A program made the position numbers and the translations under genes. 64,000 bases of DNA from Candidatus Melainabacteria bacterium (GTDB taxonomy: Bacteria; Cyanobacteriota; Vampirovibrionia; LMEP-6097), in contig DUDT01000021.1 of the NCBI GenBank assembly GCA_005110385.1, forward strand, positions 45,420 to 109,419, written 5' to 3'. The first letter of the stretch is position 1. Every line of letters starts with the position of its first letter. This document shows positions 17 through 63,999 of the stretch, one piece after another. The notes under the pieces are model-generated. The model ran no database searches. It saw only the letters and a list, made by a program, of their open reading frames with translations, and was not told the DNA's origin.

Positions 17-661
17 GTGGAGTACACTAGAGCTTTAGCTGAGCTTATAGAAGAATTTAATAAATTTCCAGGTGTTGGCCCTAAATCTGCTCAGAGAATG
101 GCTTTCTCCTTATTAAAAAAATCGACTGAACAAGTACAGCATTTTCTTGAAGTGGTACGCACGGCTAAAAATGATATTAAATATTGTAAATATTGCTTTA
201 ATTTAACTTCTAATGAGGTCTGTGAGATCTGTTTAAATAATCAACGCGATGAGAACCTTTTATGTGTAGTCGCGGAGGTAAAGGATCTTATCGCTATAGA
301 AAAAACCCGAGAGTTTAGAGGAAAATATCATGTCTTAGGTGGTTTAATTTCACCTCTAGATGGTATTTCTAGTGTTGATTTAAATATTAATCCTTTAGTA
401 GAACGCCTTAAGCTTATGGAAGGAGAGATAGAGTTAATTTTTGCTATCAGCCCAAGTACTGAAGGTGAGGCGACTATGCTCTTTTTAAAAAGGGCTTTAT
501 CGCAGTTAAATATAGGTACTGTTGTAGGGGATGCTGATGCGAGGCTGAATAGATCTATTTTAGTCACTCGCCTTGCTTATGGTTTACCATTGGGCTCGGA
601 TTTAGATTATGCTGATGAGCTTACTATAGTGAAGGCTTTAGAAGCTCGGGTGAGTATATAG
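17..661 (+). CDS. recR: Recombination mediator RecR
   Basis: GVGPKSAQRMAF HhH, CxxC-CxxC zinc finger, Toprim segment YHVLGGLISPLDG, and C-terminal VTRLAYGLPLG..DYAD. Confidence 0.97.
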   Translation: MEYTRALAELIEEFNKFPGVGPKSAQRMAFSLLKKSTEQVQHFLEVVRTAKNDIKYCKYCFNLTSNEVCEICLNNQRDENLLCVVAEVKDLIAIEKTREFRGKYHVLGGLISPLDGISSVDLNINPLVERLKLMEGEIELIFAISPSTEGEATMLFLKRALSQLNIGTVVGDADARLNRSILVTRLAYGLPLGSDLDYADELTIVKALEARVSI

Positions 662-664
662 GCA

Positions 665-785
665 GAGACCGCTGCACAACTCCATTTTCTGCGTTTTCGT
701 CGTCCTCATGATCCTCATGTACGTTAAGTACACTGCGGTCATTCGTCCTCCTCAGCCTTGAAACTGCACGTTGTGCAGCGGTCTC
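665..785. repeat. Full 121-bp palindromic element, copy A
   Basis: Perfect 16-bp TIR gagaccgctgcacaac (665-680) / gttgtgcagcggtctc (770-785). The 89-bp interior matches 62052-62140 in reverse orientation with 7 mismatches. Confidence 0.95.
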
Positions 786-798
786 GCTATGCTAAAAT
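771..798 (+). promoter_or_regulatory. Putative sigma70-type promoter for gatC-pyrG, with the -35 inside the repeat TIR
   Basis: TTGTGC (771-776), 16-bp spacer, TG-c-TAAAAT (790-798), 8 bp before the gatC ATG. Confidence 0.4.
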
Positions 799-806
799 CG
801 TAAGAC

Positions 807-12216: not shown

Positions 12217-13703
12217 TTTTTAGTAGATTTAAAAATTGCGGCCGCCTCTTTTATATTACTGACCTCGATAATTTTTATTTTTAACTGTACTAAATTCGCT
12301 TTCAATTCTGGAGTTAAGGCTGGGATTATCGCTGTAGTGAAACCCAGCTTCTGAGCTTCTTTTAACCGCAGTTCTATATTACTAACTTGGCGAATTTCTC
12401 CACCTAGGCCTAGTTCACCCAGCGCAATAAAATCATTACAAGACTGCTCGCAAACTCCAATTTCTGCGTTTTCGTCAGGCTGCGCACAAACTCCAATTTC
12501 TGCGTTATCAATAGACGAATCAGGTTTTTCGAGTATTGAAAGTGCGATAGCCAAATCAGAACTTGGTTCTCTAATACTCAGCCCACCTGCAACATTTACA
12601 TAAACATCTTGCTTGCCCAAAGGTATTTTTAAATATTTTTCCATGATGGCTAATATCTGATGCAATCGGGTGAAATCTATACCGTTCGCCATGCGCCTAG
12701 GATTATGCTGCTCAGAATATATAACCAGTGACTGTACTTCCACTAATAAGGCCCTGCGTCCTTCTTTAATAACCGTGACTATGCCACCTGCACGTTGATT
12801 TAAAAAAATCTGTGAAGGATCGCTGACATCACTTAATCCATTTTCTCGCATTTCAAATACAGCTAATTCATCAGTGCTCCCAAAACGATTTTTAATCGAA
12901 CGTAGAATTCGCAAGGACTCATCTTTAATCATTTCGAACTGCAAGACAGTATCCACCATATGTTCTAAAATTTTCGGGCCAGCGATATCACCGTCTTTAT
13001 TTATATGACCGACTATAAAAATCGGCACATTGAAAGTCTTAGCGACTCTAGTAAGATTCGAGCAGCATTCTTTAATCTGCGACACATTACCTGGAACTGA
13101 ATCTAAATTAGGGTTATAAAGAGCTTGTATGCTATCAACTATGATTAAATTAGCTTCTGAGTTTTTAATCGCTTCAAGGATTTTTTCGAGGTTACTCTCT
13201 GTATAAACTAAAATATTCTCCTCATGTTGGGACTGCTCGCAAACTCCAATTTCTGGGTTTTCGTCGTCCTTATGATTTTTATTTAACCGCTTCGCTCGCA
13301 TCTTAAGCTGAGTAGAAGATTCTTCTGCGCTAACATAAAGCACTTTTAATTTTTTTAGACTGAAATAAAAAGCTAGCTGTAATAATAGTGTCGATTTACC
13401 GATACCCGGCTGACCGCCTATAAGATTTACGCTAGCGGGGACTATGCCACCACCAAGAACACGGTTAAATTCTTCTGAGCCTGTATTTAAACGAAGAACA
13501 GAGTCTTCTTTTATTTCACTTAAAAAGAGTAATTCTTCTTCTGAATTTACAAACAGACTATGTTTCACGCCTGTAGCTTTAGTTTTCGTTTTTACTAAAG
13601 CCTCTTTATCTAAACTACCCCAAGCTCCACAACTACTACACTGACCAAAGTAACCATTCGTCTCGTGGCCACAATTACGACAAACCCAGATGAATTTACT
13701 CAT
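12159..13703 (-). CDS. radA: DNA repair protein RadA/Sms carrying three in-frame repeat-derived inserts
   Basis: CxxC-CxxC, GGQPGIGKSTLLLQ Walker A, VDSIQ, KNRFG and Lon-like C-terminal domain. Confidence 0.97.
   Translation of the reverse strand: MSKFIWVCRNCGHETNGYFGQCSSCGAWGSLDKEALVKTKTKATGVKHSLFVNSEEELLFLSEIKEDSVLRLNTGSEEFNRVLGGGIVPASVNLIGGQPGIGKSTLLLQLAFYFSLKKLKVLYVSAEESSTQLKMRAKRLNKNHKDDENPEIGVCEQSQHEENILVYTESNLEKILEAIKNSEANLIIVDSIQALYNPNLDSVPGNVSQIKECCSNLTRVAKTFNVPIFIVGHINKDGDIAGPKILEHMVDTVLQFEMIKDESLRILRSIKNRFGSTDELAVFEMRENGLSDVSDPSQIFLNQRAGGIVTVIKEGRRALLVEVQSLVIYSEQHNPRRMANGIDFTRLHQILAIMEKYLKIPLGKQDVYVNVAGGLSIREPSSDLAIALSILEKPDSSIDNAEIGVCAQPDENAEIGVCEQSCNDFIALGELGLGGEIRQVSNIELRLKEAQKLGFTTAIIPALTPELKANLVQLKIKIIEVSNIKEAAAIFKSTKNYLEKKACDSTHLANSIGR
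12440..12506. repeat. Two tandem partial palindromic elements in frame in radA (NAEIGVCAQP-DENAEIGVCEQS)
   Basis: gactgctcgcaaactccaatttctgcgttttcgtc followed by ggctgcgcacaaactccaatttctgcgtt, both matching the left arm of copy A. Confidence 0.9.
13229..13276. repeat. Partial palindromic element in frame in radA (HKDDENPEIGVCEQS)
   Basis: gggactgctcgcaaactccaatttctgggttttcgtcgtccttatgat aligns ungapped with 665-712. Confidence 0.9.
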
Positions 13704-43785: not shown

Positions 43786-43821
43786 GGCACTGTTGCCAAA
43801 CTCCAATTTCTGCGTTTTCGT
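43786..43821. repeat. Partial palindromic element, intergenic between convergent genes
   Basis: ggcactgttgccaaactccaatttctgcgttttcgt. Confidence 0.85.
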
Positions 43822-43825
43822 TTCT

Positions 43826-60725: not shown

Positions 60726-61976
60726 ATGTCCCGCACCTATAGAGACCCTATTCATCAAGAAATCACTTTAAATTCCGCAGATAGGGTAGAAGATCTGCTT
60801 ATTAGACTTATAGATACTAGAGAAATGCAGAGGCTTCGCTGGATAAGACAGCTTGGCACGGGTTGGCTCACTTATCATGGTGCAGAAGGCTCACGTTTTC
60901 AGCATAGCCTCGGAACTATGCATGTGGCTAGAAAAATGTTCGAGCAGCTTTCTGATTCACTTCTAGACTTAAGTCCAGAAACCCTAGAAAGATATAAAGC
61001 TTTAGTTTTAGTCTCTGCTTTATTACATGATGTCGGGCATGGTCCTTTTAGCCATAGCTGTGAAGAGGTCTTGGAAATTAGGCATGAAGACTTTACGCAG
61101 AGAATTATTTTAGATAATAGTACTGCCATTAATAAAACCTTGAGGAGCTTTGATAGCAGTCTGCCTGACGAGGTTTCATCAGTATTAAATAAAACTCACC
61201 CCGTGAAATTTTTATCTAACATAGTAAGCAGTCAGATAGATGCTGATCGCTTTGACTATCTTTTAAGAGACAGCCACTTCACTGGAACTAATTATGGAAA
61301 CTTTGATTTAGCGAGAGTTATCAGCAGCATTACCTTAAATAAAGAGCATGACTGTTTAGCTGTCTTTAATGGTAAAGGGCGTCTCGCTGTCGAGGACTAC
61401 CTTTACGCTAGATATTCTATGTATCTTCAGGTTTACCTGCATAAAAAGTGCTTAGCGAGTGATGTTATGTTTAAGAAGCTCTTTGAGCGTGTGAAACTGC
61501 TGCTTGTCAGTAAGAAAATAGCTTTTCTAGAACAGAATCTATTTAACTGGCTTAGTAAAGGAATGAATATAGATATTCAGGATTTTATCGAAATAGACGA
61601 TACTACCATCTGGCATCATATTAAACATTGGGTGCATGAAAAAGATAATATTCTCAAAGATCTAGCTAGAAGATTTTTAGAAAGAGATCTTTTTAAAGCC
61701 TATCAATTTAATAATGAAGAAGAGTTTCAAAGCCTTAAGCAGAATGCTCTTGCAAAGCTAAAGCTCAGAGATATGAATCCTGAATATTACATAGATAAAA
61801 TTAGCATTGCAGCTAAGCCCTACAGCTTTTATAATCCAGATAAAACTAATTTCTCGAAAGCTATTTTCGTTCAGGATCAGGATTCTAACGAACTTAGAGA
61901 AATATCAGAAGTCTCACCGATAGTAGATAGTATGGTCAAGAATAATTTTCAAAATCAATATCTGATTAGTATTTAA
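60726..61976 (+). CDS. HD-domain phosphohydrolase (dNTPase/YdhJ-like)
   Basis: RDPIH, QRLRWIRQLG, HGAEGSRFQHSLG, LLHDVGHGPFSH, IDADRFDYLLRD. Confidence 0.93.
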   Translation: MSRTYRDPIHQEITLNSADRVEDLLIRLIDTREMQRLRWIRQLGTGWLTYHGAEGSRFQHSLGTMHVARKMFEQLSDSLLDLSPETLERYKALVLVSALLHDVGHGPFSHSCEEVLEIRHEDFTQRIILDNSTAINKTLRSFDSSLPDEVSSVLNKTHPVKFLSNIVSSQIDADRFDYLLRDSHFTGTNYGNFDLARVISSITLNKEHDCLAVFNGKGRLAVEDYLYARYSMYLQVYLHKKCLASDVMFKKLFERVKLLLVSKKIAFLEQNLFNWLSKGMNIDIQDFIEIDDTTIWHHIKHWVHEKDNILKDLARRFLERDLFKAYQFNNEEEFQSLKQNALAKLKLRDMNPEYYIDKISIAAKPYSFYNPDKTNFSKAIFVQDQDSNELREISEVSPIVDSMVKNNFQNQYLISI

Positions 61977-61978
61977 AT

Positions 61979-62024
61979 AAAAACGCAGAAATTGACGAAA
62001 ACGCAGAAATTGAAGTTTGGCAAC
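61979..62024. repeat. Two tandem partial element arms just before copy B
   Basis: aaaacgcagaaatt followed by gacgaaaacgcagaaattgaagtttggcaac. Confidence 0.85.
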
Positions 62025-62035
62025 TATCTCACGAA

Positions 62036-62156
62036 GGGACGATTGCCAAACGTACAAGTTCAAGGCTGAGGAGGACGAATGACCGCAGTGTACTCAAGGT
62101 ACATGAGGATCATGAGGACGACGAAAACGCAGAAATTGAAGTTTGGCAATCGTCCC
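62036..62156. repeat. Full 121-bp palindromic element, copy B
   Basis: Perfect 16-bp TIR gggacgattgccaaac / gtttggcaatcgtccc. Interior is 82/89 identical to copy A. Confidence 0.95.

Positions 62157-62197: not shown

Positions 62198-63999
<1,802 letters not shown>

Follow-up and report, generated by a model that had tools for sequence, protein, structure and literature searches.

How can the two ends of a short repeated element match each other perfectly within each copy, yet differ between copies? This question is raised by two full copies of a 121-bp element, copies A and B, in a 64,000-nucleotide stretch of DNA from a Caenarcaniphilales genome, which we analysed as a whole and refer to as the window. 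As described in the first-pass annotation of this DNA, both copies carry perfect 16-bp terminal inverted repeats (arms). When the copies are oriented alike, they differ at 6 of 16 arm positions but at only 7 of 89 interior positions. The copy A arm sequence GAGACCGCTGCACAAC matches the window only at 665-680 (+) and 770-785 (-), and the copy B arm sequence GGGACGATTGCCAAAC only at 62036-62051 (+) and 62141-62156 (-), where chance expectation was none for either. Both copies sit directly after stop codons, with copy A lying 3 bp past the recR stop codon and ahead of gatC. The copies, their parts and the fragments found in the window are the following.

665..785, minus strand: copy A, full 121-bp element in the gap between recR and gatC, in the opposite orientation to copy B
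770..785, minus strand: left arm of copy A (element positions 1-16), exact arm match
665..680, minus strand: right arm of copy A (element positions 106-121), exact arm match
12451..12476, minus strand: 3'-end fragment of the element with the conserved GACGAAAACGCAGAAATTGGAGTTTG segment
13240..13265, minus strand: 3'-end fragment of the element
43797..43822, minus strand: 3'-end fragment of the element
61980..62030, plus strand: remains of older copies in the form of two nested 3'-end fragments, 61980-61994 and 61995-62030, of which the latter ends in a variant right arm, GTTTGGCAACTATCTC
62031..62035, plus strand: 5-bp spacer ACGAA from the old right arm to the left arm of copy B, a 5-bp spacing shared with tandem arrays of 126-bp period
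62036..62156, plus strand: copy B, full 121-bp element, preceded by an HD-domain protein gene that stops at 61976 and followed by ilvC, which starts at 62198
62036..62051, plus strand: left arm of copy B, GGGACGATTGCCAAAC, part of an arm pair found only once among 136 sampled loci
62141..62156, plus strand: right arm of copy B, GTTTGGCAATCGTCCC, the perfect complement of the left arm
62059..62135, plus strand: purine-rich core of copy B (element positions 24-100), with about 0-5% variation per column family-wide and the apical hairpin inside
62089..62103, plus strand: apical hairpin of copy B, TGTAC-TCAAG-GTACA, with four loop bases, 62095-62098, that are hypervariable among family members

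Copies A and B belong to a large family. A profile built from full copies identified 58 full elements in the host genome of the window (1.91 Mb in 25 contigs, 35.8% G+C), together with 117 3'-only and 25 5'-only fragments; fragments of all kinds numbered 144. All seven genomes of the genus carried the element, as did a second genus of the family, and it is found in the Caenarcaniphilales (Vampirovibrionia), which are relatives of cyanobacteria that do not photosynthesise. No exact match to the element core was found in viral contigs. Our family sample, drawn from six Caenarcaniphilales genomes that are 54-93% complete, comprised 170 full copies, which represent 136 independent loci and include 28 ortholog groups. 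The literature searched contained no account of this element family, nor of a MITE with co-varying ends.

The arms are the true ends of the element and move with it, as is evident from its target sites. The first-pass annotation had reported that no target-site duplication (TSD) was visible, which applies to copies A and B alone. A perfect 5-bp direct repeat flanked the element at 32 of 136 loci, compared with 1.1 expected and a maximum of 4 in 1000 shuffles, and at least four of the five bases matched at 68 of the loci (9 expected). No perfect 6-bp repeat was present in a set of 102 loci. The duplicated 5-mers were varied in sequence. Their first and last bases were complementary at 48 of 97 loci, as in AAGAT, CTCAG and AAGGT, compared with 31 expected. 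This points to a symmetric target preference, as expected of a symmetric cut. Furthermore, at least ten loci that are filled in a sister genome were cleanly empty in the host genome. At these empty sites, the flanks were joined with a single 5-mer and no arm sequence, and the difference was exactly the element plus 5 bp. Because 121 + 5 bp makes 126 bp, or 42 codons, insertions inside genes can survive in frame, and dozens of housekeeping genes have been colonised unbroken for the same reason. In total, 57 of the 136 loci lay inside reading frames that extended for 50 or more codons to either side, always on one strand and in one phase.

We then determined arm-to-arm covariation over all full copies, a check that the first-pass annotation had recommended and that came out clearly positive. 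Across the 136 loci, 89.7% of the arm positions formed Watson-Crick pairs, compared with 61.6% (maximum 66.2%) when right arms were shuffled among copies in 1000 trials. Sliding the pairing register reduced arm pairing to 22-29%. There were 112 distinct arm pairs at the 136 loci. The perfect pairing seen in copies A and B did not extend to the family, where 26 loci had no mismatch, 52 had one, 31 had two and 27 had more; in the host genome, 11 of 56 full copies had perfect arms. Four arm-type groups were recognisable, A (GAGACC..CAAC), B (GGGACTGCTCGC), C (GGCACTGTTGCC) and D (GGGCGTGTAGCC), and these were correlated with the sequence of the adjacent helix. The copy A arm pair, GAGACCGCTGCACAAC/GTTGTGCAGCGGTCTC, was common to three independent loci, and the right arm of copy B was also found in sister genome G004, beside the same flank and within a 3' fragment. 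In a second genus, eight copies in genome G018 each had their own arm sequence, about 84% complementary, and a related core. The orthologs of second-genus copies (G018, G043 and G044) were highly diverged.

A minimum spanning tree of the arm types in a set of 97 loci contained 53 double steps leading from one Watson-Crick pair to another, and 133 single steps. The double changes were split almost evenly between transversion (27) and transition (26) types. This is contrary to stepwise compensation via G·T intermediates, and a copying process fits it better.

One strand of the element is predicted to fold as a long hairpin, and copy B folded far better than shuffled sequence on both strands (z-scores of -7.3 and -6.4). 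From base to tip, this hairpin consists of a 16-bp base stem formed by the terminal inverted repeats, a 3x2 internal loop, a 7-bp helix, the core and a short apical stem. The 7-bp helix pairs positions 20-26 with 97-103 and carries a conserved G·A mismatch, which is shifted by one pair through coordinated changes in the subfamily of copy A. Per-column variability was 20-55% at arm positions 2-13 and 42-59% at the four apical loop bases, compared with 0-5% in the core (positions 24-59 and 64-100). This nearly invariant, purine-rich core of 73 nucleotides contains the direct repeats GAGGAGGACGAATGACCGCAG and GAGGACGACGAAAACGCAG, which lie on opposite sides of the hairpin. Two parts of the arms are conserved, a G close to the outer end and AAC/GTT at the inner stem end. 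The two ends of the element are alike over about 25 bp only, and there the sequence is variable. In four copies, the apex is enlarged by a structured segment of about 82 bp, which has its own hairpin and a near-perfect palindrome containing two AAGCTT sites. These 203-bp variants were found in genome G000 at C14:263376-263578, C12:86414-86616, C24:12116-12314 and C11:52565-52768.

Taken together, the conserved unpaired segments, the helices that co-vary, the free loop and the apex that can expand make up the conservation pattern of a functional folded nucleic acid. Across the whole window, no Rfam 15 family gave a hit at the gathering score, and the element itself yielded chance-level hits only (E of 1.6 or higher). 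A hammerhead-like CUGAGGA..GAA motif, spotted by eye, was dismissed as it had no Rfam support. The sole open frame of the element spans 40 codons and is without enzyme-like content. Among the private arm mismatches, G·T was in modest excess over A·C (42 and 22, respectively). In one large subfamily, A·C occurs on the same strand, and the folding strand is therefore not settled.

Two readings of the matched ends had been offered at the outset, namely that mobilisation involves the copying of one arm from the other, or that the stem is constrained rather than its sequence. Mismatches that recur at independent loci are informative about the former. C·C at arm position 12 was found at 34 loci in six genomes, A·C at position 11 at 13 loci, and G·T and A·A at position 15 at 14 and 8 loci, respectively. 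The flanks of loci sharing a mismatch were unrelated, and these are hence insertions and not segmental duplications. Therefore, both arms are inherited as a pair from a donor, mismatches included. If each mobilisation instead synthesised one arm from the other, or took it from the target, copies would be born with perfect private arms. The two window copies, perfect and mutually different, would agree with this, as would the many arm types that were seen once. However, the same mismatches (C·C, A·C, A·A) have been passed to many independent insertions, 110 of 136 loci carry at least one mismatch, and identical arm pairs such as that of copy A occur at unrelated loci. Copies with a perfect TSD averaged about one private mismatch, with 3 of 19 being perfect, and insertion-polymorphic copies carried 0-3 mismatches and were paired no better than the rest. 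TSD integrity predicted neither arm mismatches nor core divergence. We thus consider the re-synthesis of arms at each mobilisation highly improbable. An origin of the arms in the target or in a pre-existing palindrome was ruled out, since the empty sites in sister genomes hold one copy of the 5-bp target without arm sequence and the same arm pairs recur at unrelated loci. The second reading, constraint on the stem, fits the 112 arm pairs, their complementarity of about 90% and the near-invariant core.

The 28 ortholog groups show how copies change after insertion. Divergence between orthologs was 6.4% in the flanks, 5.6% in the arms, 3.5% in the adjacent helix, 1.6% in the core and 29% in the apical loop. 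Once inserted, a copy accumulates arm changes at about the rate of its flanking DNA and mostly on one side. Divergence in the core is about a quarter of that in the adjacent DNA, which is mostly coding. Between orthologs, 30 arm changes were one-sided and six were two-sided and compensated, compared with about 0.16 two-sided changes expected from independent substitutions. Three of the six occurred in a single locus that had switched between two common arm types, and the remaining three involved arm states found at no other sampled locus. Possible sources of the two-sided changes are whole-element conversion by unsampled donors and templated correction of arm against arm in place. The data are compatible with such correction taking place during replication and not mobilisation, although they do not prove it.

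Several loci indicate that sequence is exchanged between copies. In one ortholog, the apical-hairpin variant AATGTATCAAGCATAC, identical to that of other loci, was found with unchanged arms and flanks. Because this variant spans multiple bases and leaves the arms and flanks untouched, copies must exchange patches by gene conversion, which also accounts for part of the core homogeneity. Loop differences between orthologs were bimodal, affecting either none or three to four of the four bases, and loop variants recurred within genomes, for example TACAG in G003 and G004. This suggests that the divergence of the loop (element positions 60-63) reflects either sequence exchange among copies or a hot spot for mutation at the tip of the hairpin. 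In copy G003_L078, the right arm had been overwritten by that of a neighbouring partial copy. The recR-gatC spacer (window 640-800; orthologous loci L015-L020) contained a different element remnant in each of five sister genomes. In the remnant of G006 the interior lies in the opposite orientation between the same arms, and the remnant of G004 is a chimera of two arm types. This site is either a hot spot, or the element interior is able to invert between its arms.

We next looked at what might mobilise the element. It resembles a MITE in being 121 bp long, multicopy, without a transposase gene, bounded by terminal inverted repeats, flanked by a fixed 5-bp TSD and polymorphic for insertion. A parent insertion sequence with the same ends is missing from this list, in genomes that are incomplete. 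In the host genome, a long-repeat search revealed no multi-copy insertion sequence or parent with the ends of the element. Split half-elements 0.4-6 kb apart enclosing a gene, and inverted arm pairs 0.4-4.5 kb apart around a transposase, were not found in this genome either. The search for a parent turned up only the nested 203-bp variants, two independent fragments flanking dapF-ftsQ, and the gene of a large repetitive protein at contig ends.

The Y1 (RAYT) transposase PF01797 was absent from seven of seven genomes of the genus, and was detected in control genomes. The Tn3-type transposase PF01526 was absent from 30 genomes of the family. Genes for rve-type transposases were sporadic and their presence did not track the element, and these enzymes were therefore ruled out as its movers. 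Elements of the IS200/IS605 group are moved as single strands by a Y1 transposase (peel-and-paste), which inserts them 3' of a fixed tetra- or pentanucleotide without a TSD. A palindrome-associated element derived from this group was ruled out by the lack of a Y1 gene and by the TSD with its varied 5-mers. A REPIN/RAYT system was excluded for having no PF01797 in the seven genomes, by the 5-bp TSD and because no part of the element varies more than its ends. TIMEs, which are Tn3-derived, have 38-bp GGGG... inverted repeats, a 5-bp TSD and a Tn3-family transposase in the lineage. Our element shares the 5-bp TSD, yet PF01526 is missing from the 30 genomes and its ends are not 38-bp GGGG... repeats. 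An integron attC site is incompatible with AAC/GTT at the inner end of the stem, with copies dispersed in and between housekeeping genes, and with the TSD. Target-primed reverse transcription produces 5'-truncated copies, each with its own target duplication. This origin was rejected as well, with 3' fragments that outnumber 5' fragments 117 to 25 and are without a TSD of their own.

Ordinary sequence-specific transposition could produce matched ends if there were several related transposases, one per arm type, and both ends of a copy were bound by the same protein. The arm groups A-D and their correlation with the adjacent helix are in line with this, and DDE enzymes typically leave a 5-bp TSD at a target that is partly palindromic. 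However, 112 arm pairs at 136 loci are far too many for such a set of enzymes, and one near-identical core is found in all subfamilies. The host genome is also without a parent insertion sequence or a multi-copy transposase bearing these ends, no Tn3-type or Y1 enzyme was found in the family and genus genomes, respectively, and the rve-type genes do not follow the element. We therefore regard cognate transposases as improbable. Much the same holds for the idea that the hairpin has a function for the host, as an RNA stabiliser, terminator, processing signal or protein-binding site, and that host selection holds the stem and core. Low core divergence could reflect such a function instead of conversion or a constraint on mobility. 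The position of both window copies directly after stop codons is in its favour, and the share of perfect arms was somewhat higher without read-through (19 of 78 loci) than with it (7 of 58). The mean number of mismatches was nevertheless the same in read-through copies (1.69) and others (1.63), and the many insertions inside reading frames do not suit a host signal. Nor do the differences in presence between sister species at many sites, the missing Rfam match, and the free decay of the family, in which fragments exceed the 58 full copies and internal deletions are many.

A further explanation is that templated correction of arm against arm, during replication or repair, is the main cause of the complementarity, so that no structural selection is required. 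The nascent strand would fold back on itself and use one arm as the template for the other, and arm sequences would drift at a nearly neutral rate without losing their pairing. Quasi-palindrome template-switch mutagenesis is a replication error in which one arm of an imperfect repeat is copied from the other, giving compensated changes in one step (PMC8794818; PMC5453318). It is a mutational mechanism rather than an element family, well documented in bacteria and suggested as a means by which hairpins are maintained (PMC8794818). This process would explain the six two-sided ortholog changes, including the three with states at no other sampled locus, and the arms that diverge nearly like their flanks and are still about 90% paired. 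It would likewise explain that arm mismatches do not rise with TSD decay and that transversion doubles are as common as transition doubles. In ortholog trios, three of nine apparently ancestral mismatches became paired, compared with 0.31 expected, a result that we discount because its polarity is ambiguous without an outgroup and pairing that was lost on the common branch of two taxa mimics a gain in the third. Against templated correction as the main cause, given mismatches persist unchanged at 8-34 loci in six genomes, so that any correction must be slow, and most loci are mismatched. Moreover, the seemingly unique arm states may have donors in the unassembled parts of the genomes, and the conservation of the core is left unexplained. 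Loop inversion, the most specific footprint of template switching, was not seen, with loop position 59 being T in 94% of copies. Complementarity just beyond the arms, at -1/+1 (48 compared with 31), was ruled out as another such footprint, since the excess at -5/+5 is equal and a partly palindromic target preference explains it. Overall, we find it rather doubtful that templated correction is the main cause.

We consider it on balance probable that copies A and B are a non-autonomous, MITE-like element resembling the Rickettsia palindromic elements (RPEs), with a base stem that is constrained by pairing and not by sequence, and with arms that are also shaped by gene conversion and perhaps by templated repair. 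The mobilising machinery would read the conserved core and the paired stem, at the base of a single-stranded hairpin, in place of the terminal sequence, and would cut at the base of the stem. Only well-paired copies would then found new lineages, within which arm sequences could drift while complementarity stays. Gene conversion of whole elements would spread arm pairs between loci, and occasional correction of arm against arm through quasi-palindrome template switching may help to keep them complementary. Weighing against a stem-constrained MITE, copies with an intact TSD and insertion-polymorphic copies are no better paired than others, and there is thus no direct sign that pairing is needed for mobilisation. 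More tentatively, the family may represent an undescribed transposition system in which the ends are set by the base of a folded single-stranded hairpin together with the internal core, the cut is staggered by 5 bp and DDE-like, and the arm sequence drifts while remaining paired. We know of no description of a structure-reading transposase that makes a 5-bp staggered cut.

The ends of a transposon are normally its most conserved part because the transposase reads them. Here, the ends are the least conserved part of the element, yet they are matched within each copy. The view of the first-pass annotation that they are unlike the sites of a sequence-specific transposase is supported by the diversity of complementary arm pairs around one core, which suggests that the ends are recognised by shape and not by sequence. 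If they are read as structure, the family would be the transposon counterpart of integron attC recognition, combined with classical staggered integration, and would implicate a class of enzyme with which miniature elements have so far not been associated. The family also offers a natural test bed for the pairing of long hairpins, with hundreds of dated copies per genome and orthologs in sister species. With these, the effects of selection on mobility can be told apart from those of gene conversion among copies and of arm-against-arm template switching.

RPEs are multicopy palindromes of about 100-150 bp, often found in frame in housekeeping genes, for which no transposase is known (PMC10969869). 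Like RPEs, our element is short, palindromic and multicopy, is read through at 57 of 136 loci and has no known transposase. Its host lineage is unrelated to theirs, and we treat the likeness as functional only. The fixed 5-bp TSD, the tandem arrays of 126-bp period and the co-varying termini around an invariant core are absent from the RPE description (PMC10969869). REPINs have invariant 16-mer ends and a co-varying spacer, are associated with a RAYT (Y1) gene and lack a target duplication (Bertels & Rainey 2011, PMC3116915). Our element shares with REPINs that it is hairpin-forming miniature mobile DNA with compensatory stem changes, defunct half remnants (REPIN singlets) and tandem clusters. 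The REPIN layout is inverted in it, however, with ends that co-vary, an invariant interior and a 5-bp TSD, in genomes (seven) without PF01797.

Integron attC sites are read by the integrase as folded single strands, and have variable sequence, conserved complementarity and few conserved bases. Their R''/R' boxes (RYYYAAC / GTTRRRY) are located at the outer ends, and the sites form the 3' ends of cassettes in an array by intI, without a TSD. Like attC, the element has a stem that is variable yet complementary, few conserved bases, and conserved non-paired features inside the helix. Unlike attC, it is dispersed and has a conserved 89-bp interior and a 5-bp TSD, and the likeness is limited to the mode of recognition, although attC provides the best precedent for ends that are read as structure. 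In Correia elements, each end belongs to one of a few fixed sequence types, any of which can be combined with any other, and the TSD is TA. These elements, also called NEMIS, are abundant MITEs of about 100-200 bp in Neisseria, whose terminal inverted repeats fold as RNA hairpins and which can invert in place (PMC10969869). Our element is similarly an abundant hairpin MITE with terminal inverted repeats, and its recR-gatC interior is inverted in one sister genome, but it differs from Correia elements in its 112 matched arm pairs and its 5-bp TSD.

We finally looked at the fragments and arrays into which the family decays. The 5-mer that follows the right arm recurred at the 5' edge of 5 of 114 3' fragments, compared with 6.7 expected. 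Lacking a target duplication of their own, 3'-only fragments are therefore probably deletion products. In comparisons with sister genomes, 3' fragments derived from full copies via deletion or unequal exchange of exactly one 126-bp period. As a separate observation, the bias towards 3' over 5' fragments may reflect tolerance of an acidic peptide (..HEDDENAEIE..) encoded by the 3' half of the element.

Tandem arrays with a period of 126 bp (element plus 5 bp) were found outside the window, in G000 at C12:213144-213390, C18:111039-111285 and C14:105378-105624. At their internal junctions, the last four bases of the right arm were replaced (..CAG-CTTA-AAGAT-GG..), and this junction was found in arrays of two different arm subfamilies. 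Full copies lying a few bp downstream of an older right end numbered about 20 by eye; a strict profile criterion returned 13, located 3-7 bp past the older end with a mode of 5 bp. Several apparent empty sites were actually losses of one 126-bp period, including that at the ilvC site of copy B.

Two minor observations concern the assemblies and lineages. The contig ends G000 C21:1-1341, C4:1-827, C5:1-683 and C14:1-680 share a stretch that is 98-100% identical. It lies in a long open frame (>730 aa) for a repetitive protein and not in an insertion sequence, and may represent a multi-copy large surface protein that breaks the assembly. At G000 C16:58076 and its ortholog, G003 locus L079, the flanks were identical over 480 bp, and other loci of this genome pair differed by about 8-11%. 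This suggests that sequence has recently been exchanged between the two lineages.
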